From an uncultured Thermodesulfobacteriota bacterium (lineage in GTDB: Bacteria; Desulfobacterota; JBBIRW01), in NCBI GenBank assembly GCA_964505185.1, contig CAZDGM010000002.1, positions 72,597 through 136,596 of the forward strand: 64,000 nucleotides of DNA, given 5' to 3'. The notes beneath the pieces are model-generated. The model had not been told where the DNA came from and did not search any database. It was given only the letters and a program-made list of their open reading frames with translations. The translations under genes and the position numbers were made by a program. This document shows, one piece after another, positions 3,636-55,512 of this stretch. Within the stretch, counting starts at the first letter, position 1. Every line of letters begins with the position of its first letter.

Positions 3636-4796
3636 TTAAAACAATCCTTCATCAAACAGATCTATGCCCCCAAGCGTCTCAAGAAATGCCTCTACCCTTA
3701 CCCTGAATGGTCCCAATGGATTTATTGAATCAAATTCAAGAAGGATGGATGGGATACCGTTTTCCTGAAGGAAATTTTTGAGCACTGGATTGTCCCCCTC
3801 GTGAGGATCGCAGAATTTCTGCTGGATTATTATAGCCCCCTGAACATTGTAATCCTTTGCAAGTTTCAGTATATGCTGAAACCTGTTCCTTGCCGGATAA
3901 TCCTTTGTTGGACATGGGGGTCTATCGATATATCTGTCTGCAATTGATTGCATTATATCGTCTGAAATATCCACGGGGTTCCAGAAATACCTGCTCCCTG
4001 CACACTGCTCATCAATAACAATCGTCGCACCAAGGGATTCTATCATTTTAAGAAATTCGGCATCATCATTCTCGCTTCCAACAGTCATAAGCCTTATTCC
4101 CGTTTTTCTATCAATCCTCCTTTCCGGTAGAACCTTCAACACCTCCTCCAGGGCCCTGGTGTGCTCCTCTTTGTCGATAAACTGGCTTGTTATTGCCATA
4201 AACATACATTCAAGCCCTGTAACAGGTGGATGCTTCTCCTTTCTGAACTCATAGATCTTTCTTAAAAGATTGCGGTTTCTGTTCAAAAGCATGACGGCAT
4301 CCCGAAGCCTATCCCTTTCTATTTTCCTCCCCACCTCTTCCTCGATAAATCTTTTAAACCGCTCGAGCTCTCCCTTTAAATAGACCCTTGAAAATGGGGA
4401 TTGTACCTCATTGGGCATGGGAAGGTAGTAAGCATACTTTACAGGAATATGCGATCTCCATGTATTGAAGGTCTGCCGAAAATGCAGGCACGACTGGGCA
4501 ATGACAATACCATCGAGATATTCATATCTCCCTTTAAGGCCCTGTGCAAGTGCATCCCTGCAAAAGGGACAGAACATTCCAAAAATGAATGGCTCTGTAA
4601 CATCCTGAATCTCATGGCTTCCAAGGATGCGCACAGGAAGTATTCCGGCAGCATAAAGCATCTCTTCAGGTACATAAGTGCAAAAGGTTCCAAATATGGG
4701 CCTTCCTGTCCTCTCCTTCCACCTTTTCGCATATTCGTGCCGATTGTAATACCACTCATGGAATATATCCATCACATCTGAATGAAATATGCCCAT
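3636..4796 (-). CDS. BcrC/BzdN/HgdA-like large subunit (2-hydroxyacyl-CoA dehydratase/benzoyl-CoA reductase family)
   Basis: 386 aa with an FCDPH motif near the C-terminus, as in BcrC/BadD/HgdA family proteins. It is the first gene of the operon. Confidence 0.75.
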   Translation of the reverse strand: MGIFHSDVMDIFHEWYYNRHEYAKRWKERTGRPIFGTFCTYVPEEMLYAAGILPVRILGSHEIQDVTEPFIFGMFCPFCRDALAQGLKGRYEYLDGIVIAQSCLHFRQTFNTWRSHIPVKYAYYLPMPNEVQSPFSRVYLKGELERFKRFIEEEVGRKIERDRLRDAVMLLNRNRNLLRKIYEFRKEKHPPVTGLECMFMAITSQFIDKEEHTRALEEVLKVLPERRIDRKTGIRLMTVGSENDDAEFLKMIESLGATIVIDEQCAGSRYFWNPVDISDDIMQSIADRYIDRPPCPTKDYPARNRFQHILKLAKDYNVQGAIIIQQKFCDPHEGDNPVLKNFLQENGIPSILLEFDSINPLGPFRVRVEAFLETLGGIDLFDEGLF

Positions 4797-4836: not shown

Positions 4837-4852
4837 TGCAAATTCTATTCCA
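4837..4852 (-). promoter_or_regulatory. Candidate sigma-54 (-24/-12) promoter of the BCR-like operon
   Basis: Minus-strand sequence TGGAAT-AGAAT-TTGCAT has GG-N10-GC spacing matching TGGCAC-N5-TTGCW. It lies about 40 nt upstream of the start at 4796, and an NtrC-family activator gene is adjacent. Confidence 0.45.
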
Positions 4853-5003: not shown

Positions 5004-6380
5004 TCAATCAATGCGCAGCCTCTTTATGTGGTAGCAAAGGTTGGCCCTGTTTATCCCTAGTATTCTTGCGGCAAGTGCCTTATTCCCATTAGCCATCCTG
5101 AGCGCTTTCCTTATCGCACGGGCCATAACCTCATCAAGCAAAGAATTAATGTTAATACCGCCTGTCAAATCTATCTCACTTATAAACATATCCTTACCCT
5201 TATGCTCCCCAAGCATCTCCTTCGGGAGGTTAGCAACACCTATATAATCTATATCCTCAAGAATCATTATCCTTTCTATAGTATTCCTCAGCTCCCTTAC
5301 ATTCCCCCTCCAGGGATACCGGAGAAAGACCTCCTCGGCTTCCTTGGTAAGACCCTTTACTTTTCTATTAAACCTTTCGTTGAAAACCCCTATGAAATGC
5401 CTCGCAAGCGGAAGGATGTCTTCTTTTCTTTCCCTAAGTGGAGGAATATATATCGATATGACTTTCAGCCTGTAATACAGATCCTCGCGGAAAAGCCCCT
5501 CTTTTATGAGCTTTTCTAAATCCTTATTCGTTGCAGCGATAATTCTAACATCAAATGGAATGCTCTTAACACCGCCCACCCTTCTGAAGCTCTTCTCTTC
5601 AATCGCCCTTAACAACTTTGCCTGAAGCACCATATCCATGTCGCCAATCTCGTCAAGGAATATGGTTCCACCATCAGCCTCCTCAAAAAGCCCTCTCTTT
5701 GTTGTCTTTGCATCAGTAAATGCCCCCTTCTCGTATCCAAACAGCTCACTCTCAAGAAGATCCCTCGGAATCGCCGCACAGTTAATGCTTACAAAGGATT
5801 TACCAGCCCTTGGGCTTTCATAATGCAGGGCTCTTGCTATTAATTCCTTTCCTGTGCCACTCTCTCCATAGATAAGAACCGTAACATCGGATTTAGGTGC
5901 AACCTTACGAATGATATCGAATATCTCTCTCATGGCTGGACTTTCGCCTATGATATTCGGAATCCCATATCTCTTACTCTGCTCCTCAACAATCTTTTTC
6001 ATCTCCCTGTGAAGGGATCGGGTTTCAAGGGCAAGCTTAACAATTAATGATATTTCATTTGCCTTAAACGGTTTACTTATATAATCATATGCCCCGAGTT
6101 TTATCGCTTTAACTGCAGAACTTACCGTTCCATATGCCGTCATAATAATAATAAGAACATCAGATTGCATTTCTTTAAAATCTTTTAACAGCTCGAGCCC
6201 ATTCCCATCAGGAAGCCTCAGATCAAGAAGCACAAGACCGGGTGAATGAAGACTGAACTTCTCTCTCGCTTCATCTGCACTCCCGGCGAGATGAACTTCG
6301 TATCCCTTCTTTTCAAGTAGCTGCTTTAGAGATGTTCTTATAAGCTCTTCATCATCAACAATAAGAATCCTTTCACCCAT
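5004..6380 (-). CDS. Sigma-54-dependent response regulator (NtrC/AtoC family: REC + AAA+ + Fis-type HTH)
   Basis: 458 aa with an N-terminal receiver (IVDDEE...[11 protein letters not shown]), a GESGTGKE Walker A motif, a GAFTDA region and a C-terminal HTH. Confidence 0.9.
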
Positions 6381-6395
6381 AATTAACTCTGTTAA

Positions 6396-8003
6396 TTAAC
6401 TGTTTGCTTTTTTATATGCCGGAAGATATATAGTAAATACGCTTCCCTTGCCTTCCTCACTTTCAACATCTATCCATCCCCCATGTTCCTTTATAATTGA
6501 ATGCGCTATACTCAATCCAAGTCCTGTTCCACGCTGCTTGGTTGTGAAGAATGGATCGAATATCTGATCTCTGATAAATGGAGGAATCCCCTTTCCGGAA
6601 TCCCTTATCTCAACAGCAATGAAATCGTCTTTCCTATAGGTCTTTATCTCAATTCTTGATCCAGGCTTACCTGCTTCCATTGCATTTATGCATAGATTAA
6701 ATAGAACCTGTTTTATCCTATCAGCATCAACATAAACATTAGTATTGTCATCACTTTTTGTGATTATCATCATCTGCCCTTCCTTCTTTAACCTTTCCTC
6801 AAATATCTCGGCGAATTCTTCAATGATGGTATTAATATCGGCAGGCTTCCTCTCGGGCATGGAGGGTCTTGCAAAATCAAGGAGGGAATTGACTATCCCC
6901 TCGAGACGAATTATTTCATCAGATATCCTCTCTATTAATTTTGAAGACTCCTCATTCATTGGAATCTCATCCCTTATGATCTCGAGGGAAACACTTATCC
7001 CTGTAAGGGGATTTCTAATTTCATGAGCTATACCGGCTGCCAGATGACCCAGTGCTGCCAGGTGACTCATACGCCTTATCTGCTCATCCATTTTCATCTT
7101 TTCCGTGAGATCATGCAAAATAATAATAGCTCCTGAGGACTTATCATCCTTATCCTTCATGGGCGCCATGGAAATTGATAGATACATCTCTCCCTTTCCA
7201 TGAACATTCATTCTTGTTTCAAAATAATTAACTATTTGTGAATTATTTATTACTTCTCTGAATTTTTCTGAAAGTTCATGATTATATTCAAAATACCTCA
7301 GAAACTGTTTTCCAGGATAATCTTTTCCATCAAAACAGAAATTATCTTCCCACGATTTATTTCCTAATATTATATTCCCTGATGTATCAACGGCGACGAT
7401 GGCATTGGGTGATGATTGAAGGATTGTTTTAACAAGATTCCTTTCCCTCTTTACTGTTTCAAGGAGACGATTCATCTCTATTACAAGCCCCGCCTGATTT
7501 GCAAACATCTGCAGCAGCTCAATATCCTCGGCTGTGATATCTGTTTTGCTGAAACTTCTGTCAGCTGCTATGGTTCCTATGACCCTTTGTCTTGCAAGAA
7601 CAGGAACATGGACACAACAACTTCTCTGTAAAGCAAGATTTCTCTTTTTATCAAGTTCTGTCAGCAAATCATCATACAATCCATCCTTTATAAAATAAAC
7701 CTTCCCTGTTTTTATAACTTTTGTTTCAACGCAATCATCTTCAGGAATTCTGTATTTTATATTTTTGATACTCATTTTACATCCAATATTCATAACACCC
7801 TCAAGGGTTTTCCCATCTTCACTCAGCAGATACAGAGCAACCCTGTCATATTTAAGCCCATTTATAATACTTTCAAGGATACCGTTCAGAACCCCTTCTG
7901 GAGGCATTGGGCTTGCCATCAGGTTACTTATGCGGAGCAGGCTCGATAGGATTTCACGAACCCTCAAGAATTCTTTTCTTCCCACCTTCATAGCCCCCAG
8001 CAA
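6396..8003 (-). CDS. Soluble sensor histidine kinase (GAF-PAS-HisKA-HATPase_c)
   Basis: 535 aa with no TM segment. H-box HEIRNPLTGI and C-terminal G1/G2 ATPase motifs (DSGKGIP, GTGLGLSI). It sits 15 nt upstream of its cognate NtrC-type regulator gene. Confidence 0.85.
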   Translation of the reverse strand: MLGAMKVGRKEFLRVREILSSLLRISNLMASPMPPEGVLNGILESIINGLKYDRVALYLLSEDGKTLEGVMNIGCKMSIKNIKYRIPEDDCVETKVIKTGKVYFIKDGLYDDLLTELDKKRNLALQRSCCVHVPVLARQRVIGTIAADRSFSKTDITAEDIELLQMFANQAGLVIEMNRLLETVKRERNLVKTILQSSPNAIVAVDTSGNIILGNKSWEDNFCFDGKDYPGKQFLRYFEYNHELSEKFREVINNSQIVNYFETRMNVHGKGEMYLSISMAPMKDKDDKSSGAIIILHDLTEKMKMDEQIRRMSHLAALGHLAAGIAHEIRNPLTGISVSLEIIRDEIPMNEESSKLIERISDEIIRLEGIVNSLLDFARPSMPERKPADINTIIEEFAEIFEERLKKEGQMMIITKSDDNTNVYVDADRIKQVLFNLCINAMEAGKPGSRIEIKTYRKDDFIAVEIRDSGKGIPPFIRDQIFDPFFTTKQRGTGLGLSIAHSIIKEHGGWIDVESEEGKGSVFTIYLPAYKKANS

Positions 8004-40430: not shown

Positions 40431-40549
40431 TATCCATTCCTTAAAAATTTTAAATTATCCCCGATATTACACCATAATATCTCGTGATTAGCAATTGAAA
40501 AAAATCGGCAAAATGATAAAATTAATTAAAATAAGCCTGTTTTATTTTA

Positions 40550-42436
40550 ATGGCGAAGTTATTGCCCTTTCCTATAAAGAGCATAAGGTTCAAGGTCCTC
40601 TCTTCTGTAGTAATTGTGCTTACCATCGTAATGGGAATTATATTTTCCATACAGTACTACCAGTATCGCAAGGAACTTATAGAAAGGCTTGGCCTTTCAT
40701 CCACACCACTTAGCGATGTTATAAAGGGAAGTCTCAAGCATGCAATGCAAACAAGAAATATGGAAGCCCTGGAGCAGATTATAAGAAATGTGAGTATGCA
40801 AAAAGGGGTTGAAAAGGTATTTATATTTGACAAAAAAGGCGTGATAAAGGTCTCTCCGGATGAGCAGGACATAGGGAAAAGGGTCGAGATTAATGATAGA
40901 ACCTGCCAGATATGCCACAAGTATGAGCCGGATAATAGAAACAAGACTGTTATCTTTACGGTCTCAAAAAATAAAAGGATATTCAGAAATGTAAATCCTA
41001 TCCTAAATGAACAGGAGTGTCATCGCTGCCACAATCCTCTTGACAAAATAAATGGCGTTCTTATCAGTGATTTCTCAATGGCTGAGGTGGACAGGGAACT
41101 TTCCAGCAAAATGAGGCAGATGATTATCTCCCTCATAATAACACTGACATTAACGATAATAACAATTACCTTTCTGATGAACAGAATGGTAATTAACAAG
41201 CTTGAGAAAGTTGCCTTAGCAACAAAATTACTCAGTAAAGGGAATCTTGAATTCAAGGTTGAGATGAAGAGTGAAGATGAGATAGGGGAACTTGCGGATT
41301 CATTCAATCAGATGGTTGAAAATCTTAAGAAGATGAAAGAACTCAGAGAGAGAAAAGAGTTACTCGAAAATGTTTTATCAAATATAAAGGAATCAATAAT
41401 TATAATTGACCATGAAGGAAGGATTATTTCGATCAGCAAGACCGCTGAATCGATGTTTGGCTACAGATCAGATAACATACTTGGATCCCATTATACCGAA
41501 CTTGGCGAGGAAAGGATGAGGGCATGGGCAAAGGCCTCAAGAAAAATAACAGTTTGCGAAGAGGTCCAGATGAAAGCGGGGGAAAGATTCTTTCCCGTAT
41601 CCTTTACCCTTACACCACTAATGGATGAGCAAAACGAAATAGTGGGATTTATTGAAATAACCAGGGATCTCACGGAAGAAAAAACAAAAGAACTCCTTCA
41701 GAAACAGTTGATACACTCTGAGAGACTTGCTGCTATGGGAAGACTTGCCGCAGGTGTTGCTCATGAATTGAATAATCCACTTGGTAATGCACTTTTATAT
41801 GCGAGAATCCTTCTTGAAGAAATCACACCTGAAAGTCCATATTACAGAAATGCCCAGAAGATTGTTGATAATATCATGAGATGTAAAAAGATAGTTTCAA
41901 ACCTCCTTGATTACACACGTCAATCCGAAGTTCATATGGAATTGAACGATATAAACAGGATTATCAAAAAGGCTGTGAAGATGCTCTCCAATGAGCTTTC
42001 CATAAATAATATTGAATGTGAGCTTGTCCTTTCGGAAGATCTTCCTCCGGTGCTTTGTGATAGAAACCAGATTCAGCAGGTCTTCATAAATCTGATACAG
42101 AATGCAATTGAAGCCGTTGGAAATGATGGAAAAATAAAGATCTTTTCGGCAACCTCCGACAATGATAGTAAAACATTGCTATTTGGTGTATGGGACAATG
42201 GGCCAGGGATCGATCCCGATATTATTATAAGAATTTTTGAGCCTTTCTATACAACAAAAGAAAAGGGGACAGGACTTGGTCTATCCATATGTGAAGGAAT
42301 AATCAAGAGGCATGGAGGAAAGATACGGGTTGAAAGTCCTCCCTCTAAAAACCCGTTCAAGAATGGGATTATTCCTTCAGAAGGAACACTTTTTGTTGTG
42401 GAGCTTCCTTATGTTAAACATAATATGGTTTGCTAA
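40550..42436 (+). CDS. Sensor histidine kinase with periplasmic di-heme c-type sensor domain, HAMP, PAS, HisKA, HATPase_c
   Basis: 628 aa; TM1 around residues 16-36 and TM2 around 190-212. The periplasmic loop holds CQICH (40904-40918) and CHRCH (41018-41032). HAMP (LSKGNLEFKVEMKSEDEIGELADSFNQM), PAS, H-box AHELNNPLGN and C-terminal ATPase motifs follow. Confidence 0.8.
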   Translation: MAKLLPFPIKSIRFKVLSSVVIVLTIVMGIIFSIQYYQYRKELIERLGLSSTPLSDVIKGSLKHAMQTRNMEALEQIIRNVSMQKGVEKVFIFDKKGVIKVSPDEQDIGKRVEINDRTCQICHKYEPDNRNKTVIFTVSKNKRIFRNVNPILNEQECHRCHNPLDKINGVLISDFSMAEVDRELSSKMRQMIISLIITLTLTIITITFLMNRMVINKLEKVALATKLLSKGNLEFKVEMKSEDEIGELADSFNQMVENLKKMKELRERKELLENVLSNIKESIIIIDHEGRIISISKTAESMFGYRSDNILGSHYTELGEERMRAWAKASRKITVCEEVQMKAGERFFPVSFTLTPLMDEQNEIVGFIEITRDLTEEKTKELLQKQLIHSERLAAMGRLAAGVAHELNNPLGNALLYARILLEEITPESPYYRNAQKIVDNIMRCKKIVSNLLDYTRQSEVHMELNDINRIIKKAVKMLSNELSINNIECELVLSEDLPPVLCDRNQIQQVFINLIQNAIEAVGNDGKIKIFSATSDNDSKTLLFGVWDNGPGIDPDIIIRIFEPFYTTKEKGTGLGLSICEGIIKRHGGKIRVESPPSKNPFKNGIIPSEGTLFVVELPYVKHNMVC

Positions 42437-42467: not shown

Positions 42468-43850
42468 TTGTCGGAGATCTTTCATGGAAGAAAAATTCTA
42501 ATCGTTGATGATGAAGAGGATACACTCGAGGCATGTTCCCATATACTGGGAAAACTTGGGATTCACGTGCAGACCGCAAATAATGCCACTCAAGCACTAC
42601 GACTGATTCGCGAAAATTCCTTTGACATTGTAATTGCTGACATAAAAATGCCCGGAATGGATGGTATTGAGCTTTTGAAGAATCTTAAAAAAATCGATCC
42701 ATTAACAAGGGTCATAATGATAACTGGATATGCGACCATTGAAAGCGCAGTTGAATCAATGAAGGCAGGTGCATTTGATTATATTTCCAAACCATTTACA
42801 ACAGATCAGCTAAGGGCTGCTGTAAAAAGGGCCCTAGAAAATCTGGATCTTATTACTGAGAACAGGGAGTTAAGGGAGAGACTCAGAGGGGTGGAAAGAG
42901 AGCTAACTTTTATTGCTTTCAGTGAATCCATGAAAAGGATTCAGGAGCTTATAAAAAAGGTTGCAGAAACAGATTCAACAGTTCTCATACTTGGAGAAAC
43001 GGGAACAGGGAAAGATCTCGTTGCAAAGCAGATCCATCGAATGAGCAACCGGGCAAATGAACCATTCATTACTGTCAACTGTGCAGCAATCCCTGCAACA
43101 CTTCTTGAAAGTGAGCTGTTCGGACATGAGAAGGGAGCTTTTACAGGCGCGAACAGAAAGAAAAAGGGGCTTTTTGAGCTTGCTGATGGCGGAACCATCT
43201 TTCTCGATGAGATAGGGGATCTCAGTATTGACCTTCAGGGAAAACTTCTCAGGGCTATTGAGGAAAAGGCCATCATGCCCCTTGGAAGCGAAAGAAAAAT
43301 ACATATTGATGTGAGGATAATTGCAGCAACAAACAGAAACCTTATTGATGCAATCAGGCAATCAAAATTCAGGGAAGATCTCTACTATCGACTCAATGTT
43401 TTTCCTATATATCTGCCTCCATTGAGAGAAAGAAGGGATGATATAATACCCCTGGCCTCACATTTCCTTGAGAGATATAACCGCAAGCATGGCAAGCAGA
43501 TATATGGGTTTAAGAAGGAAGCCCAGGAGGCTCTACTCTCTTATAGCTGGCCAGGCAATGTAAGGGAGCTTGAGAATTTTATCGAAAGGGCGGTTATACT
43601 TGAAGAATCTGAAACAATAGGTCTCGATTCATTGGGTGGTGATCTTATAAGATATATATCTTCCTCAAATCCCCCGTATCCACTTTCATATAGGGAAAGG
43701 GATATGGAGGAATGGCCTTCCCTCGATCATCTTGAAAAAACCTATATATTGGAGGTCCTCAAGGCAACAAAATGGAACAGGAAGAAGGCTTCAAGGATCC
43801 TTGGTGTAAGCACTGTAACCCTCTGGAGAAAGATCAGGGATAAAAAATAA
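42468..43850 (+). CDS. Sigma-54-dependent response regulator (NtrC family)
   Basis: 460 aa with REC (ILIVDDEED...IADIKMPGMDG), AAA+ (GETGTGKD, GAFTGA) and a C-terminal HTH. Confidence 0.9.
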   Translation: MSEIFHGRKILIVDDEEDTLEACSHILGKLGIHVQTANNATQALRLIRENSFDIVIADIKMPGMDGIELLKNLKKIDPLTRVIMITGYATIESAVESMKAGAFDYISKPFTTDQLRAAVKRALENLDLITENRELRERLRGVERELTFIAFSESMKRIQELIKKVAETDSTVLILGETGTGKDLVAKQIHRMSNRANEPFITVNCAAIPATLLESELFGHEKGAFTGANRKKKGLFELADGGTIFLDEIGDLSIDLQGKLLRAIEEKAIMPLGSERKIHIDVRIIAATNRNLIDAIRQSKFREDLYYRLNVFPIYLPPLRERRDDIIPLASHFLERYNRKHGKQIYGFKKEAQEALLSYSWPGNVRELENFIERAVILEESETIGLDSLGGDLIRYISSSNPPYPLSYRERDMEEWPSLDHLEKTYILEVLKATKWNRKKASRILGVSTVTLWRKIRDKK

Positions 43851-43991
43851 TTTCATTTTGTAATCAATCCTTCTTAATGATCCCTTTCAAAATGTAATCT
43901 AAAGGGGATCAATCATTGAACCCATAAAGGCCCGCATAAAATTTTCCCTAATATTTCAACAGAATAACATTTCAATTCTCATAAAAACCCA

Positions 43992-44007
43992 TGGCATGAA
44001 GATTGCG
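43992..44007 (+). promoter_or_regulatory. Sigma-54 promoter (-24/-12) for the cytochrome/molybdoenzyme operon
   Basis: TGGCAT-GAAGA-TTGCG has exact GG-N10-GC spacing and is a near-consensus match to TGGCAC-N5-TTGCA. It lies about 30-45 nt upstream of the first operon gene and right after an NtrC-family activator gene. Confidence 0.55.
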
Positions 44008-44037
44008 ATTCTTTCTGGTAAAACCCCTTTTTAATGG

Positions 44038-44415
44038 ATGCTTGTAAATATGAAAGTATTTGGAAGAAGGATAATGATAGTTGAGGATGTAGCGGAAAGA
44101 AGGGAATTAATCTGCAGATTCTTTACTTCCCACGGCTATGAGGTATACCCCACAGATAACGTTGTAAAAGCATTGATGGCATTCCTGGAGGAACCTTTTG
44201 ACATCATTGTTATCAAGGGAGATCTTCCGCTTCTCTCTGGTCCGGAGGCTGCCTTAATTATGAGAAAACTCCATCCAATGGCAAAAATTTTTCTAACGAT
44301 GGATGAGAATTCCGAAAAAGGTCTCATTGTTAAAAAGGAGGAAATCGAATACTTTCCATATGTCCCTGAACCCGTGGACATGAATTCTCTATCAAGCATT
44401 CTTGAGGAAATATAG
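44038..44415 (+). CDS. Receiver-domain-like protein, probable pseudo-receiver
   Basis: 125 aa with a CheY-like fold pattern (RIMIVEDV...FDIIVIKGDLPLLSG). A Lys sits at the position expected for the phospho-acceptor Asp. The start may instead be the ATG at 44050. Confidence 0.55.
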   Translation: MLVNMKVFGRRIMIVEDVAERRELICRFFTSHGYEVYPTDNVVKALMAFLEEPFDIIVIKGDLPLLSGPEAALIMRKLHPMAKIFLTMDENSEKGLIVKKEEIEYFPYVPEPVDMNSLSSILEEI

Positions 44416-44437
44416 GGGAAAAGAAAAGGAGAAATCT

Positions 44438-45571
44438 ATGAAGAAAGGAAAAATGTTAGCAATGGCAATTATTCTTGCATCATTATATACTTCGTCATCT
44501 CATGCCGGTAATAATTCATCAACTATTCCTGAATTCACAAATAGTTTTGAATGCGGAAAATGCCATATCGATGTTTATAGAAACTGGACTGTTTCCATGC
44601 ATGCACTATCTTTACAGAATCCTATCTTCAGGCTCGCTTATCAGGAAGCCTATACAAAAACATCGGGAAAAGCAAAATTCCTGTGCCTTGGGTGCCATTC
44701 ACCAACAGTTTCTATAACCGGTGATTTTGAACTGGTGAAAGAGATAAGCAGAGAAGGAGTGACATGTGATTTCTGCCATTCAATAAAGAATTATATAGGT
44801 AAAAAGAAGAGATATATCGTCGAGCCAGGGCCTGTCAAAAAGGCTCCCGTGAGAAGATCGTCTTCTGTATCTCATAAAGTTGAGTTTTCTCCGCTTCACA
44901 GTTCGTCAGAAATATGTGCGGGATGTCATGATGGAAAAAATCTAAAAGGCCTCCCTGTTAGAACTACATATACTGAATGGCTTAAATCCAGATATTCTAA
45001 AGACGGAATAACATGTCAGCACTGCCACATGAAGCGAACAATAGTTAAGTACAGAACTGCTTCAGATAGTAGATCTGCTTCAAAGGCTGTAAGAAGTCAT
45101 TATTTCCTAAGAACAATTGATGATATCAAGAAAGCTGCAATTGTCGAGATAAAAAACATAGAAAGGAAAGACAATAAGATGATTGTTTCAATTTCAATCG
45201 CAAACATCGGGGCCGGTCATTTCATTCCAACAGGAAGCCCTTCAAAAAAACTCATCCTGAGGGTCTCAGCAAAAAATCAGATGAATTATTATACCATCCA
45301 GGAAAAAACTTTTGGCATGAAGGTAATCGATGAAAAGGGAATAGAGCTCCATACGGAACCCGAGATTATGTTGAGAGGGTCAGCCATAAAAATTGATGAG
45401 AGAATACCTCCACAAGGAAAAGTTATTGAACTATTGGAATTCGATTTTCCAAAGGATCAATATGCTGTTGTCACTGCTCAGCTTATATATCTGTACAGAC
45501 CACTGATTCTGGATGAAACTTCAATGAGGGTGGAAATCGCATCTGACCAAAAAATTTCTCCAGCAAGGTAA
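44438..45571 (+). CDS. Periplasmic pentaheme c-type cytochrome
   Basis: An AAGGAG RBS precedes the ATG at 44438. Signal peptide MKKGKMLAMAIILASLYTSSSHA. Five CxxCH motifs (CGKCH, CLGCH, CDFCH, CAGCH, CQHCH). The C-terminal ~150 aa has no hemes and looks beta-rich. Confidence 0.75.
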   Translation: MKKGKMLAMAIILASLYTSSSHAGNNSSTIPEFTNSFECGKCHIDVYRNWTVSMHALSLQNPIFRLAYQEAYTKTSGKAKFLCLGCHSPTVSITGDFELVKEISREGVTCDFCHSIKNYIGKKKRYIVEPGPVKKAPVRRSSSVSHKVEFSPLHSSSEICAGCHDGKNLKGLPVRTTYTEWLKSRYSKDGITCQHCHMKRTIVKYRTASDSRSASKAVRSHYFLRTIDDIKKAAIVEIKNIERKDNKMIVSISIANIGAGHFIPTGSPSKKLILRVSAKNQMNYYTIQEKTFGMKVIDEKGIELHTEPEIMLRGSAIKIDERIPPQGKVIELLEFDFPKDQYAVVTAQLIYLYRPLILDETSMRVEIASDQKISPAR

Positions 45572-45575
45572 CCAG

Positions 45576-46160
45576 ATGAAAAAAGCAAAAAGATATGCAA
45601 TGCTCATCGATCTCAGAAGATGTATTGGCTGCCACAGCTGCTCAGTTTCATGCAAGGCAGAAAATCAGGTTCCATTGGGCGTATGGAGAACATGGGTAAA
45701 ACAGGTTGAAAAGGGAATTTATCCAAATGTAATCAGAATATTTCTTCCACTTCTATGTAATAATTGTGAACGTCCTGTTTGCAAAACTGTATGTCCTGTA
45801 AAGGCAACATATCAAAGGGAAGATGGCATTGTTATGATAGATCCCCATCGATGTATTGGGTGTAAATATTGTATGGCCGCATGCCCATATAATGTCAGAT
45901 ATGTTGATCCTATTAAGAAAATTGTCCAAAAGTGCACATGGTGCTATAGAAGGGTGGATGCTGGTGATCTTCCTGCATGCGTAAAAACATGCGTTGGAGG
46001 CGCGAGAATATTTGGTGACATAAACGATCCTGATAGCGAAATTTTCAGGCTTATCTCGATAAATTCGGTTCAGGTAATAAAACCCGAGAAGGGAACCTCA
46101 CCGATGGTCTTCTACATAGATCTCGATATTACCGCAGTAGAGGCGAGGGAGAATGTATGA
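45576..46160 (+). CDS. 4x[4Fe-4S] electron-transfer subunit of a molybdoenzyme complex (PsrB/NrfC/DmsB family)
   Basis: 194 aa with four Cys clusters: CIGCHSCSVSC, CNNCERPVCKTVCP, CIGCKYCMAACP and CTWCY...C. Confidence 0.85.
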   Translation: MKKAKRYAMLIDLRRCIGCHSCSVSCKAENQVPLGVWRTWVKQVEKGIYPNVIRIFLPLLCNNCERPVCKTVCPVKATYQREDGIVMIDPHRCIGCKYCMAACPYNVRYVDPIKKIVQKCTWCYRRVDAGDLPACVKTCVGGARIFGDINDPDSEIFRLISINSVQVIKPEKGTSPMVFYIDLDITAVEARENV

Positions 46161-47059
46161 ATGAAGCAGTAAGAGTTGTATACAATATTCATCATGAAAT
46201 TCCACTTGGAGTATTGATAGCAAACTATTTTTATTTTACCGGGTTGAGTGCCGGATCCTTTATTCTCTCAACCCTTGCATACGTATTCGGCATAAATAAA
46301 TACAAGCCTATAGCAAAAACAAGTGTAATACTTGCAACTTTACTTCTTATTCTTGCACCAATAAATCTCCTTATTGACCTTGAACAGCCATACAGGTTCT
46401 GGACACTCTTTTATTACATAAATCCGACATCGGCAATATCATGGGGCTCATTTTTACTAACCCTTTATCCATTGAATTGTATCATTTATGGATTTTTCAT
46501 GTTCAAGGGAAATGAAAAGATGACAAAATTATTTGGTATCCTGGGAATACCCCTTGCTATCTCTGTTCACGGATATACAGGATTTATACTTGCCCTTGCC
46601 AGAGCAAGAGATCTCTGGCATACACCCCTGATGCCAGTTCTTTTTCTCGTTTCAGCTATGGTATCAGGAATAGCGCTTACTATCCTCGTTATCTATGTTA
46701 AGGACAGATTCTTTAGCCCATTAATGAAAGCCAATGAAGAGTTAATCATAGATCTTGGAAAGATACTCGCTTTTTCAATAATCCTTGATCTTTCTCTTGT
46801 GTTTGCAGACATTATTGTTATGTTTAATTCAAATCCAGAGGCATTACAAATTGTTGATAGGGTTCTTTTCGGTAAATTTAAAAATCTATTTCTCGGCATC
46901 GAAATTACTCTTGGATCACTGATACCACTTCTCATACTTCTTTCACCATTAAGAAAAAATATAACGCTTGTAATAATTTCTTCACTTCTCGTTATGATTG
47001 GAATATTTGCCATGAGATATGTTGTTGTTGTTGGAGGACAGATCATTCCACAGATATAA
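46157..47059 (+). CDS. NrfD/PsrC-family integral membrane quinone-interacting subunit
   Basis: 300 aa with about 8 predicted TM helices. Its start overlaps the FeS gene stop (ATGA). Confidence 0.75.
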   Translation: MNEAVRVVYNIHHEIPLGVLIANYFYFTGLSAGSFILSTLAYVFGINKYKPIAKTSVILATLLLILAPINLLIDLEQPYRFWTLFYYINPTSAISWGSFLLTLYPLNCIIYGFFMFKGNEKMTKLFGILGIPLAISVHGYTGFILALARARDLWHTPLMPVLFLVSAMVSGIALTILVIYVKDRFFSPLMKANEELIIDLGKILAFSIILDLSLVFADIIVMFNSNPEALQIVDRVLFGKFKNLFLGIEITLGSLIPLLILLSPLRKNITLVIISSLLVMIGIFAMRYVVVVGGQIIPQI

Positions 47060-47071
47060 AGGAGGTAAAAT

Positions 47072-48019
47072 ATGAATGGATCAAAAAATATTTTTTATGA
47101 CTTTCAACTTAAAAAAACAAATCTCGGAACATTTCGAGGAAACCCCATTTCCATAGTTATTTTAATTGTCTGCATCAGTTTGAGTATTTTAACAGCTTTA
47201 AATTATAAATTCATACTTTCATCAGCTATTATAGTCATTGGTATACTTTCTCTTCTAAGTATCAAAATAGCAGCACACTGGGAAAGGGCTGTTGTTTTAA
47301 GGCTCGGCAGATTTATTGGATTCAGGGGGCCAGGTATCTTCTTCCTCATCCCCTTCATCGATACCATTCCATACTGGATTGATCTGAGGATTATAGCAAC
47401 ACCCTTTAAAGCAGAACAAACTTTAACCAAGGATAATGTTCCTGTTGATGTTGATGCCGTATGTTTCTGGAAGGTTGTGAATCCTGAAAAAGCAGCGCTC
47501 GAGGTTGCAGACTACCATGAAGTTATAAGCTGGGCTTCTCAAACTGCATTGAGGGATGTCATAGGTAAAAGTCTTCTTTCGGAAATGCTTGTTGGGAGGG
47601 AAATGATCGATCTACAGCTAAAAGAATTGATAAAGGAGAGAACAGAAATGTGGGGAATTTATGTTGATTCTGTTGAAATAAGGGATGTGAATATCCCAGT
47701 ACCTCTTCAGGATGCCATGTCCATACAGGCGCAGGCTGAAAGGGAAAGGCAGGCAAGACTTATCCTTGGTGAATCTGAAACACAGATTGCTCAGAAATTC
47801 GCAGAGGCTGCAAAGGCTTATATAAATAATCCCACAGCGTTGCATCTCAGGGCAATGAACATGCTTTACGAAGGTTTCAAAGATAAAGGAACACTTGTTA
47901 TCGTTCCAAGCACAGCCGTTGAAACAATGGGATTGGGTGCGATCCTTGGCGCCTCATCACTTACGAAAATATCGATACCATCTTCGGACACAGAACCTGT
48001 CTCAAAGGGTTCTCAGTAA
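47072..48019 (+). CDS. SPFH/band-7 (stomatin/prohibitin-like) membrane protein
   Basis: 315 aa with an N-terminal TM followed by an SPFH domain (ERAVVLRLGRFIGFRGPGIFFLIPFID...) and a coiled-coil region. Confidence 0.8.
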   Translation: MNGSKNIFYDFQLKKTNLGTFRGNPISIVILIVCISLSILTALNYKFILSSAIIVIGILSLLSIKIAAHWERAVVLRLGRFIGFRGPGIFFLIPFIDTIPYWIDLRIIATPFKAEQTLTKDNVPVDVDAVCFWKVVNPEKAALEVADYHEVISWASQTALRDVIGKSLLSEMLVGREMIDLQLKELIKERTEMWGIYVDSVEIRDVNIPVPLQDAMSIQAQAERERQARLILGESETQIAQKFAEAAKAYINNPTALHLRAMNMLYEGFKDKGTLVIVPSTAVETMGLGAILGASSLTKISIPSSDTEPVSKGSQ

Positions 48020-48037
48020 TAAAGGGAGTGTAATAAC

Positions 48038-50236
48038 ATGGCTGATATTACTCGAAGGGATTTCATCAAAGCTGGTTTGATATTCCTCTCCACATCAGCC
48101 CTAATTCCTCCCGTCTTTGCTCGTGCAACTGATAGTAAAAATTTAGACACTAACAAAGACAGTGGGACCTTGTTTGACACAGCAATACCGACAACCTGCC
48201 TTATTTGCGGAGCAGGCTGCGGAATCATAGCATATAAAAGGCATGGGAGGGTGGTAAAAATAGATGGAAACCCCTTGCACCCCACGAATAGAGGAAAGAT
48301 ATGTGGTAAGGGACATGCGGGGCTTAATATACTTTATGATCCTGAAAGGGTTCTTTCCCCGCTCATGAGAAAGGGACCAAGGGGATCTGGTAACTGGAGG
48401 GTCTGTACATGGAGCGAAATAATGGATGGGATATGTGAAAGGATTCAATCAGCGCTCAAAAATGGTGATGAGATTCTCTTTCTTCAAGGATCTGACAGAA
48501 TGGGAAACCTTGTGGAAGATATATCCAGGAAGCTCGGTAGAATTAAATTCCTCGCATCGAAAGAACAAAGGGGTATTAACAAAAGGATGGCATATCTGAC
48601 GACTTTTGATACAGATATTGTTATACCTGATATTGAGCAGAGTACCTTTATCTTAAACTTTGGCGCAAATCCATTTGAGGCAAATTATATGACTCCTCTG
48701 GCACAAAGAATTATCAATGCAAAAATAGAAAGAGGTGCAAGATTAATAACAATTGATCCGAGACTCTCAAACACAGCGGCGAAAAGTGATCTCTGGATTC
48801 CCATAAAACCCGGCACTGATGGAATTGTTTCTCTCTCAATGTCATTTATGATCATGAATAATGATCTTCATGACCGTGAATTTATAAGGAATTGCACTAA
48901 TTGCGATGAAAAGCATTTGCTGGCACATCTTTCCAAATACACACCAGAATTAGCTGAAAGGGTTTCCGGTGTTGATAGAAATCTAATCAGAAAAATTGCA
49001 TTTCAATTTGCAACTTCTGAATCACCAATTGCTATTTCAGGAAGGGGAGTTTATCAGCATCTAAATGGTATCGAAGCGGAGAGATCAGTCCTTCTTCTCA
49101 ACATAATCTGTGGAAGAATAAATAAAAAAGGAGGATTGTTTATTTTTGAAAGGAGCAGGAATAATAGAGAAACGATTTTTAGTAAAAAAGGTTCTTCCGG
49201 AAATGAATCATTTCTCGATATTATAGAGGATGCCAGAAGAAAAGGAAAAAAATATCCTGTTATTATAATCCATCACTCAAATCCAGTTTATTCCCAAAAT
49301 GAAATAAATTTAATTTCGGAAACACTCAGGGATGAGAAACTCTTCCCTTTCATCATTGTATCCGACACCCATATAACGGAAACAGCCATGTTTGCCGATG
49401 TAGTATTGCCCGATACATCATATCTTGAATGCTGGGGCATAACGGAGCGTCCGGTATTTGGTAAAGATCCATATATCTCATTATCACAGCCAGTTTCTGA
49501 TCCTCCTGGAGAGGCTATTCCATTTGAGGATGTTTTCATTCAGATTGCAAACAGGGTTGGTATCAGCACAGATTTTAAAGACTCAAGGGAATTTATCAAT
49601 AGAAAAATAGGGATGCTACTTAGAAATGAAAAGGCAAAGTCTGAATTGTATGAAAATGGATTTCTTTACTTAGCGAATAGGGAAAACCTGCTGAGAGTTT
49701 CAACTGTTTCGAAAAAAATAGAGATCCATTCAGAGAAAATGAAGGAGTTTGGTCTTGAACCATTTCCTTCATTTAAGTCACCTTCTGAAAAAAAACCGGG
49801 ATGGTTTTATCTTATTACATATAAGATAAACACACATTCACACTCAAGAACACAAAACTGTAAATGGCTATCTGAGATATTTCATACAAATCCGCTGCTT
49901 ATTAATCCATTGACCGCTGAAAAACTCGGAATAAAAGAGGGAGATACGGTTAAATTGAAAACAGAATTGGGCTCTGTATCGGTAAAAGTACAGTTTACAG
50001 AGGGCATCCATCCTGATGCCCTTGCTATTGCAATGCATGCAGGTCATTGGGCTTATGGAAGGGTCGCAAGGGCAATACCCTTCAAAAGCAACGACCCGGA
50101 TACCATGTTGATTTGGTGGACAGCAAAAGGAAATGGGATAAATCCCAATAGAATACTGCATTCAACGCATCCCTCAGGTGGTGAACATCCTTTCCTCGAT
50201 GCGCTTGTTTACCTGGATGTATCCAGCGGAGGATAA
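48038..50236 (+). CDS. Tat-exported molybdopterin (Mo/W-bisPGD) oxidoreductase catalytic subunit, Psr/Phs-size class
   Basis: 732 aa with twin-arginine signal MADITRRDFIKAG...VFA, the FS0 cluster motif CLICGAGCG...C(x27) and molybdopterin oxidoreductase and molydop_binding regions. Confidence 0.85.
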   Translation: MADITRRDFIKAGLIFLSTSALIPPVFARATDSKNLDTNKDSGTLFDTAIPTTCLICGAGCGIIAYKRHGRVVKIDGNPLHPTNRGKICGKGHAGLNILYDPERVLSPLMRKGPRGSGNWRVCTWSEIMDGICERIQSALKNGDEILFLQGSDRMGNLVEDISRKLGRIKFLASKEQRGINKRMAYLTTFDTDIVIPDIEQSTFILNFGANPFEANYMTPLAQRIINAKIERGARLITIDPRLSNTAAKSDLWIPIKPGTDGIVSLSMSFMIMNNDLHDREFIRNCTNCDEKHLLAHLSKYTPELAERVSGVDRNLIRKIAFQFATSESPIAISGRGVYQHLNGIEAERSVLLLNIICGRINKKGGLFIFERSRNNRETIFSKKGSSGNESFLDIIEDARRKGKKYPVIIIHHSNPVYSQNEINLISETLRDEKLFPFIIVSDTHITETAMFADVVLPDTSYLECWGITERPVFGKDPYISLSQPVSDPPGEAIPFEDVFIQIANRVGISTDFKDSREFINRKIGMLLRNEKAKSELYENGFLYLANRENLLRVSTVSKKIEIHSEKMKEFGLEPFPSFKSPSEKKPGWFYLITYKINTHSHSRTQNCKWLSEIFHTNPLLINPLTAEKLGIKEGDTVKLKTELGSVSVKVQFTEGIHPDALAIAMHAGHWAYGRVARAIPFKSNDPDTMLIWWTAKGNGINPNRILHSTHPSGGEHPFLDALVYLDVSSGG

Positions 50237-50237
50237 A

Positions 50238-50753
50238 ATGAGAAGGATCTTAGCCATACCCATCGAGATACTCCTTATGATATTTGTAGCCGGAATAGTA
50301 GTAGGATTTTACCCTTTTCTTGGGTTGATAAAATATTCAACATCCTCTTCCTCACAGTGTATGAAATGCCACAAAAGCGGATACCTCAGCATCCCCTCTC
50401 AATCAAATGCCCATTCTAATTCGGCAGATTGCATTTCATGTCATGCAACGAAAAATTCCATTATACCACTTGATTTTCCGAAGGCCTTTTCCGCTGACAA
50501 AAATATTGTTAGCAAAAATTGCACGAAATGCCACAGAAATTCTCCAGCTCTTATTGAGAAAAAAGAGAATGGAATACTTCTGAAAATACCTCATAAAAAA
50601 CATATCGAGTTCAGTGATGGACAATGCACACTTTGCCACCGCAGGATTGCACATAAATGGTCAGAAAAGCAAACCCATCGTCCAGATATGGGAGACTGTT
50701 TTTCCTGTCATTCGCGAAATGAAGACTGCACAACCTGCCATCCCAATGGATAA
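50238..50753 (+). CDS. Membrane-anchored hexaheme c-type cytochrome
   Basis: GGAGG lies 7 nt upstream of the ATG at 50238 (1 nt after the upstream stop). N-terminal TM helix and six CxxCH motifs in about 171 aa (CMKCH, CISCH, CTKCH, CTLCH, CFSCH, CTTCH). Confidence 0.75.
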   Translation: MRRILAIPIEILLMIFVAGIVVGFYPFLGLIKYSTSSSSQCMKCHKSGYLSIPSQSNAHSNSADCISCHATKNSIIPLDFPKAFSADKNIVSKNCTKCHRNSPALIEKKENGILLKIPHKKHIEFSDGQCTLCHRRIAHKWSEKQTHRPDMGDCFSCHSRNEDCTTCHPNG

Positions 50754-52966: not shown

Positions 52967-53038
52967 GCGGGAGTAGTTCAGGGGTAGAACACCACCTTGC
53001 CAAGGTGGGAGTCGCGGGTTCAAATCCCGTCTCCCGCT
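52967..53038 (+). tRNA. tRNA-Gly (anticodon GCC)
   Basis: Manual cloverleaf: acceptor GCGGGAG/CTCCCGC, D-arm GTTC-AGGGGTA-GAAC, anticodon arm CCACC-TTGCCAA-GGTGG, T-arm GCGGG-TTCAAAT-CCCGT, discriminator T. CCA is not encoded. Confidence 0.85.
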
Positions 53039-53063: not shown

Positions 53064-53135
53064 GGCGGCATAGCCAAGCGGAAAGGCAGAGGTCTGCAAA
53101 ACCTCCATTCCCCGGTTCGAATCCGGGTGCCGCCT
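53064..53135 (+). tRNA. tRNA-Cys (anticodon GCA)
   Basis: Acceptor GGCGGCA/TGCCGCC, anticodon loop CTGCAAA, T-loop TTCGAAT, discriminator T. It lies 25 nt after tRNA-Gly. Confidence 0.85.
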
Positions 53136-55427: not shown

Positions 55428-55512
55428 GCCTGGGTGGCGGAATAGGCAGACGCAAGGGACTTAAAATCCCTTGGAGGTTCCCTCCGTGCGGGTTCGATTC
55501 CCGCCCCAGGCA
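55428..55512 (+). tRNA. tRNA-Leu (anticodon TAA)
   Basis: 85 nt. Acceptor GCCTGGG/CCCAGGC, anticodon loop CTTAAAA, long variable arm GGAGG-TTC-CCTCC, T-loop TTCGATT, discriminator A. Confidence 0.85.

Follow-up and report, generated by a model that had tools for sequence, protein, structure and literature searches.

The stretch at 43851-44049 of the window (the whole 64,000 nucleotides of DNA that were analyzed) lies between the gene for an NtrC-type regulator and a respiratory operon, and raises the question of whether this operon is transcribed from a sigma-54 (RpoN) promoter under the control of the neighboring regulator. We predict with good confidence that the stretch is a classic enhancer-type sigma-54 control region of the operon, run by the adjacent activator via two dyads.

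Two regulatory genes, preceded by a candidate promoter, are encoded upstream:

40495-40522, plus strand: sigma-70-like promoter, TTGAAA-16-TAAAAT with a TG extension (consensus match only)
40550-42436, plus strand: sensor histidine kinase, HAMP-PAS-HisKA-HATPase (domain search)
42468-43850, plus strand: NtrC-type sigma-54 activator with receiver, AAA+ and Fis-type HTH domains (domain search)

The sigma-70-like promoter ends 28 nt upstream of the kinase gene and likely drives a kinase-activator operon. The histidine kinase is the presumed partner of the activator, and its gene lies upstream of the activator gene in all orthologous loci. A reading made earlier from the letters of the window (hereafter the sequence-only reading) had placed an NtrC-type regulator directly upstream of the intergenic region, and the domain searches bear this out (Response_reg, 5e-34; Sigma54_activat, 1.4e-73; AAA_lid_14, 5e-27; HTH_8, 6.8e-12). 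The GAFTGA loop is intact (at 43134) and, based on alignment with CheY, the phospho-acceptor Asp is retained. The activator is an unnamed member of the group I NtrC-family response regulators, and scores below the NCBIfam equivalog cut-offs for AtoC (458 vs 714 bits), NtrC (427 vs 558.6 bits) and ZraR (396 vs 760 bits). Its HTH, 'ATKWNRKKAS.ILG[IV]ST.T.WRK', is common to the orthologs and differs in paralogs.

The region had been described as preceding a cytochrome/molybdoenzyme operon. The operon is there, as seven tightly packed genes at 44050-50753, but its first gene encodes a 121-aa pseudo-receiver, and the cytochrome and molybdoenzyme genes come later:

44050-44415, plus strand: single-domain pseudo-receiver, 121 aa (domain search, CheY alignment)
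44438-45571, plus strand: multihaem cytochrome c (c554/ExtKL-like) with signal peptide (domain search)
45576-46160, plus strand: 4Fe-4S ferredoxin subunit, TtrB/DsrO/PsrB-like (domain search)
46157-47059, plus strand: NrfD/PsrC-type integral membrane quinol-interacting subunit (domain search)
47072-48019, plus strand: SPFH/Band 7 protein (domain search)
48038-50236, plus strand: molybdopterin oxidoreductase catalytic subunit, Psr/Phs group (domain and structure-relative search)
50238-50753, plus strand: NrfH/NapC-like small multihaem cytochrome c, last gene of the operon (domain search)

No plus-strand terminator-like site was found in the intergenic gaps of the operon, and a convergent FBPase gene follows its end. 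Among solved structures, the molybdoenzyme is closest to Thermus PsrA (2VPW, E = 8.6e-61). Assignment of a substrate was rejected, as the protein scores below every NCBIfam equivalog cut-off. The Band 7 gene also occurs in the operons of L083, L090, L091, L095 and L098 (locus designations are those of the comparison below). It sits inside the Mo-enzyme/NrfD operon in several orthologous loci, of both gene orders, and is an unusual companion for a Psr-type complex.

The pseudo-receiver has K at the position of CheY D57 and E at that of CheY K109. A 96%-identical relative has a gene call of the same length (P0130, 121 aa). A start at 44038 was rejected, given that no such protein is on record and that the gene calls of relatives give either 121 aa, equivalent to a start at 44050, or 139 aa, which is an artefact. 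Orthologous small receivers are encoded in the compared loci (L083, 6522-6896; L084, 4756-5118; L085, 7889-8248; L089, 7660-8019; L090, 8612-8977; and others). All true members of the family have K, R or Q at the D57 position and E at the K109 position; L097 alone keeps D and K, both together, and the two positions look like a covarying charge swap. The family is rare, with 11 clusters at E <=1e-37 in 5.8 billion proteins in a word-limited search. Feedback of the pseudo-receiver on the kinase or the activator would be our guess.

The features predicted between the activator gene and the operon are:

43851-43863, no strand assigned: distal putative enhancer dyad, TTTCA-TTT-TGTAA (repeat search, ortholog comparison)
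43885-43897, no strand assigned: proximal putative enhancer dyad, TTTCA-AAA-TGTAA (repeat search, ortholog comparison)
43992-44007, plus strand: sigma-54 -24/-12 promoter element, TGGCATG-AAGA-TTGCG (consensus match, conservation)
44017-44019, plus strand: predicted transcription start (from standard sigma-54 geometry, 11-13 nt past the C of the -12 GC)

We identified related loci for comparison using both the activator and the receiver. A protein search with the activator recovered an identical protein, one 90% relative and about 55 proteins at 51-61% identity, the latter from MAGs labelled NC10, Rokubacteria, Methylomirabilota, Nitrospinae, Binatia and Acidobacteriota. A scan of genome contigs with the activator gave 80 loci, all of them paralogs at <=48% identity and none with the small receiver or the operon. 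A metagenome scan with the receiver alignment gave four loci, one of which was new (L091; L092 and L093 are fragments near-identical to it); the fourth, L094, is on a contig of 28,334 nt, as long as the L087 record. The compared set comprises nine independent loci (L083, L084, L085, L089, L090, L091, L095, L096 and L097) and the close relative L098/L099. The activators of the nine are 53-61% identical to that of the window, and their MAGs are labelled NC10, Rokubacteria and Nitrospinae. All nine and the close relative share the order kinase, activator, intergenic region, small receiver and cytochrome/FeS/NrfD operon. The Mo-enzyme gene is found in all loci except L097, where the operon stops after NrfD, and L091, where the contig ends first. 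The orthologous intergenic regions are 125-1213 nt long.

The longest, at 1.2 kb, belongs to L090 (7399-8611) and owes its expansion to several REP-like GC-clamped palindromes (e.g., GGGGAAACCTTTTAAAAAAGGTTCTTCCCC); the dyads and promoter of this locus survive in its final 250 nt.

Two direct repeats, TGTAATC at 43859-43865 and 43893-43899, had been proposed as sites for the regulator. They lie at these positions, and their role as regulator sites gains from conservation in orthologs, but what is conserved is a 13-bp dyad and not a 7-bp direct repeat. The TGTAATC copies are the right ends of two 15-nt repeats, TTTCATTTTGTAATC and TTTCAAAATGTAATC, and form the right halves of two dyads of the form TTNCA-N3-TGNAA. 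The distal dyad opens on the first base past the activator stop codon, with its center at about -161 from the predicted start, and the center of the proximal dyad is at about -127; they begin 141 and 107 nt upstream of the T in TGGCAT, inside the roughly 80-250 bp typical of NtrC-type enhancer sites, as do the dyads of the orthologs. The orthologs usually have two copies as well (e.g., TTGCAAAATGCAA, TTTCATTTTGCAA, TTACAAAATGTAA and TTTCATCCTGAAA, of which TTTCATTTTGCAA is the distal dyad of the close relative L098), the distal one beginning a few bases from the activator stop codon. Copies in L091 and L095 are weaker or degenerate. In six loci out of ten, counting the window, the distance from the start of the proximal dyad to the -24 T is 103-135 nt (the 107 nt of the window resembles the 103-113 nt of L084, L090, L095 and L096); L097 has a shorter distance, and L085 and L089 have longer ones. 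The centers are 34 bp apart in the window vs about 80 bp in most orthologs, and the spacing across loci ranges from 14 to 84 bp.

Exact matches to TTNCA-N3-TGNAA are concentrated in these regions. Two of the seven matches in the window sit inside the 199-nt intergenic region, and across the ten loci there are 11 in 3.9 kb of intergenic sequence vs 8 in the other 164 kb, a 58-fold enrichment (p = 6e-14). The same motif emerged when every 5-N(1-6)-5 palindrome in the nine loci other than the window was counted without prior bias and compared with 20 shuffles: TTTCA, TTGCA and TTACA at gap 3 ranked highest (in 5, 4 and 3 loci, respectively; shuffle maximum <=3). We infer that the adjacent activator is the protein that binds the dyads.

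The dyads could instead serve another regulator or belong to the 3' end of the activator gene, with the promoter real and the activator binding elsewhere or acting from solution. We consider this unlikely. It draws on the abutment of the distal dyad on the activator stop codon in nearly all loci, which possibly ties it to the end of the gene, as well as on the degenerate copies and variable spacing noted above. However, the dyads co-occur with the activator family and its distinctive HTH across phyla, and they lie 100-260 nt upstream of the -24 element, the usual range for enhancers. Furthermore, a 5-bp A/T-rich dyad is too weak for an RNA hairpin (the local RNA fold is unexceptional, z = -0.27), and arms of 5 bp with a 3-bp gap are typical of response-regulator sites, which are usually palindromic with arms of 4-6 bp around a gap of 3-8 bp (PMC3333781).

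The half-sites may vary along with the protein. In L083, L084 and L085 the HTH (at the activator C-terminus, window 43700-43850) reads 'STSTIW' and the dyads TTGCA..TGCAA, and in the remaining orthologs the HTH reads 'STVT[IL]W' and the half-sites are mostly TTTCA or TTACA. The pattern may reflect covarying protein and DNA recognition, but it is probably a single evolutionary event.

Two independent assemblies break at this location, L082 at window 43864 and L081 at about 43832. L082, which shows 2 mismatches over 11.4 kb and comes from the same population, stops inside the distal dyad, at the very place where the close relative differs (TGTAATC vs TGCAATT). Strain polymorphism in the putative enhancer may be the cause of the assembly-graph break.

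Other candidate features of the intergenic region were rejected. An 11-bp palindrome, TCAATCATTGA, had been suggested as a further regulator site near 43912-43922. It is located 3 nt to the left, at 43909-43919, and is at chance level, as 48% of shuffles of the region hold a perfect 5+(0/1)+5 palindrome. It also lacks the IHF consensus and a counterpart in distant orthologs, and was discarded both as a regulator site and as an IHF site. An IHF site or a bend between enhancer and promoter is frequent in such systems and not obligatory; no IHF-like site (WATCAANNNNTTR, <=1 mismatch) was found in 43851-44049. Inverted repeats at 43878-87/43902-11 and 43846-59/44047-60 are matched in 17% and 12% of shuffles, respectively, which is chance level, and were rejected as terminators given the unexceptional RNA fold and the lack of a T-run. 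An sRNA and a riboswitch (e.g., for Moco) were likewise dismissed, as Rfam gave no match to the leader or intergenic region of the window or of five orthologous loci. The Rfam matches in the window are three plus-strand tRNA genes only (52967-53038, 53064-53135 and 55428-55512).

The promoter element at 43992-44007 reads TGGCATGAAGATTGCG on the plus strand. The sequence-only reading had recognized TGGCAT-GAAGA-TTGCG with exact spacing here, and we confirm it: 10 nt separate the GG (43993-4) from the GC (44005-6), the canonical -24/-12 spacing. The element is co-oriented with the first operon gene and lies 43 nt upstream of its ATG at 44050. It is the sole exact TGGCAY-N5-TTGC on either strand of the 64 kb (0.20 expected). 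Against the strict equal-weight consensus TGGCACG-N4-TTGCW it scores 10/12, or 11/12 when Y is allowed at position 6, the deviations being a G in place of A/T at the end of the -12 region and a T in place of C at position -22. Shuffling of its own 199-nt intergenic region, coding strand only, gives p = 0.0005. By sequence alone the match is weak and short of window-wide significance, because about two sites of equal quality under the strict consensus are expected per window by chance. A 28-column PWM built from the nine orthologous promoters did not place the window site among its top hits; its spacer and flank columns were overfitted, and it was replaced by a core-consensus score with per-locus shuffles.

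The call is settled by context and conservation. The orthologous intergenic regions cannot be aligned outside the conserved elements, yet the best plus-strand GG-N10-GC is sigma-54-like in ten of ten (per-locus shuffle p 0.0005-0.055 with the window included and 0.001-0.055 in the other nine; Fisher combined p = 3e-11 without the window). Their distance to the downstream receiver start is 26-224 nt, and all are on the plus strand:

L083: promoter element TGGCATAAAATTTGCC
L084: promoter element TGGCATCAGATTTGCT
L085: promoter element AGGCACGCTATTTGCT
L089: promoter element TGGCATATTTTATGCT
L090: promoter element AGGCACTTTTCTTGCT
L091: promoter element TGGCACACAACCTGCA
L095: promoter element CGGCACCCTTTTTGCT
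L096: promoter element TGGCACGTAGTTTGCG
L097: promoter element CGGCGCCCTTCTTGCT

Comparison of this region in related genomes, which had been suggested as a check, thus finds the promoter kept in all nine distant loci and identical in L098/L099. The window and L098 differ by 17 substitutions in 290 nt, 10 of which fall in the 52-nt spacer 43921-43972 and none in 43973-44033; the latter stretch is invariant among the window, L098 and L099. In L083, L085, L089 and L095 a GC-rich hairpin with a T-run lies between the activator gene and the -24 element:

L083, about 6373-6404: terminator-like hairpin
L085, about 7594-7635: terminator-like hairpin
L089, about 7476-7514: terminator-like hairpin
L095, about 4574-4594: terminator-like hairpin

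In these four orthologs the upstream transcript would therefore end before the element, and the operon would need a promoter of its own. The hairpins fall between the proximal dyad and the -24 element, and the putative enhancer would therefore be part of the 3' UTR of that transcript. No such terminator was found in the window, and part of the expression of the operon may therefore come from read-through past the activator gene.

Were the -24/-12 match fortuitous, transcription would reach the operon from the kinase-activator operon by read-through, or would begin at an unrecognized sigma-70-type promoter. The frequency of equally good sites in 64 kb and the missing terminator would both allow this, as would a weak sigma-70-like match (9/12) at 43824-43851 and the lack of an RpoN box in the six-frame translation of the 64-kb window. 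We regard it as quite improbable, however, given that the element is kept in ten loci amid unalignable sequence, terminators precede it in four orthologs, and the close relative has no change in the promoter stretch. The window also encodes two sigma-54 activators, which would be functionless without sigma-54; the presence of sigma-54 in the genome is implied indirectly by these two genes. No competing good sigma-70-like promoter or terminator was seen in 43851-44049. We conclude that 43992-44007 is very probably a genuine sigma-54 promoter. The claim that an RpoN-type promoter is served by sites of the adjacent NtrC-type regulator likewise finds support in the nine distant loci and the close relative.

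It is hardly credible that the conserved stretch is instead coding, with the receiver starting at an ATG at 43996 inside the promoter, as in the 139-aa product annotated at the equivalent start in L098 and L099, because an in-frame TAA (44032-44034) lies between this ATG and the receiver in the window and the 96%-identical relative is called at 121 aa; in distant orthologs, moreover, the element lies upstream of the start (by the 26-224 nt given above) and the N-termini align with the 44050 start.

For an enhancer-type sigma-54 control region, we predict the following course of events. The kinase and activator would probably be expressed from their own sigma-70-like promoter, and the kinase would phosphorylate the activator upon a signal. 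The activator would then assemble on the dyads at 43851-43863 and 43885-43897 and, via DNA looping and ATP hydrolysis, could open the closed RNA polymerase-sigma-54 complex on TGGCATG-N4-TTGCG (43992-44007). Transcription would proceed from near 44018 through the seven-gene operon to 50753. The transcription start and the signal belong to the part of this model that we infer.

A second module of the same layout is encoded on the minus strand of the window:

6396-8003, minus strand: GAF-PAS kinase
5004-6380, minus strand: sigma-54 activator (GAFTDA loop)
4837-4852, minus strand: sigma-54-like site TGGAATAGAATTTGCA, after the activator gene
3636-4796, minus strand: first gene of a 2-hydroxyacyl-CoA dehydratase/BcrAD-type operon

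The site TGGAATAGAATTTGCA is 42 nt upstream of the ATG of this operon, and A/T-rich palindromes (TGATAAAAATTTATCA and TTTTTATC-N8-GATAAAAA) lie about 100-150 nt upstream. The second activator and its sigma-54-like site lend indirect support to a sigma-54 reading of 43992-44007.

The proposed mechanism is a textbook bacterial switch, unsurprising to a specialist, and in this case belongs to an uncultured lineage. Its value is that a sigma-54 promoter, a 13-bp motif (TTNCA-N3-TGNAA) and a target operon are defined for one activator family, and the motif and promoter allow regulons to be predicted genome-wide in related MAGs. An orphan Psr/Phs-like molybdoenzyme complex is tied to a specific sensor kinase, which provides a handle on its substrate, and the small pseudo-receiver is singled out as a candidate feedback component. 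Tentatively, and with more doubt than confidence, the promoter and dyads might control a conserved sensory module not described before, present in MAGs labelled NC10/Methylomirabilota, Rokubacteria and Nitrospinae, in which the kinase and sigma-54 activator switch on a Psr-like respiratory complex together with a rare, charge-swapped pseudo-receiver (D57 to K/R/Q, K109 to E) that gives phosphorylation-free feedback on the kinase or activator.

Among known systems, NtrB/NtrC-glnAp2 of enteric bacteria combines a GG-N10-GC promoter with two dyad enhancer sites, about 32-34 bp apart and over 100 bp upstream of it; the NtrC sites are at about -140 and -108. The locus described here resembles it in having a kinase, an activator with receiver, AAA+ and Fis-HTH domains, two dyads and a GG-N10-GC promoter, and in that no transcription is expected from the promoter unless the activator is present. 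Unlike in NtrB/NtrC-glnAp2, the operon under control is respiratory instead of serving nitrogen assimilation, and the regulator genes are directly upstream of it. The dyad is TTNCA-N3-TGNAA rather than the TGCACC-N5-GGTGCA of NtrC, and the activator, at 427 bits, is below the ntrC cut-off of 558.6.

Sigma-54-dependent response regulators of Desulfovibrio vulgaris have been mapped to adjacent operons with predicted sigma-54 promoters, and the 5-N3-5 dyad is similar to their mostly palindromic motifs, in which 3-8 bp separate arms of 4-6 bp (PMC3333781). That set concerns other organisms and regulators; the motif reported here is purely computationally derived. The enzyme complex is similar to PsrABC/PhsABC in that the Mo subunit is nearest to 2VPW and has FeS and NrfD-type partners; it differs in the extra multihaem cytochromes, Band 7 protein and pseudo-receiver of the operon, and the Mo subunit scores 318 bits against the PhsA equivalog cut-off of 694.

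AioX/AioS/AioR and RpoN control the arsenite oxidase operon aioBA, which has an RpoN site in its promoter whose disruption lowers expression (PMC7533571). As in AioXSR, a functional analogue only, a two-component sigma-54-dependent regulator is encoded beside the operon of a DMSO-reductase-superfamily molybdoenzyme (PMC7533571). Unlike Aio, the Mo subunit is Psr/Phs-like (TIGR02693, 34 bits vs a cut-off of 359), there is no gene for an AioX-type periplasmic binding protein beside the kinase gene, and the operon begins with a pseudo-receiver. The closest system in geometry is NtrBC-glnAp2 and the closest in logic is AioXSR-RpoN-aioBA; the locus is a member of neither, because its activator is below the equivalog cut-offs and its enzyme is not AioA.
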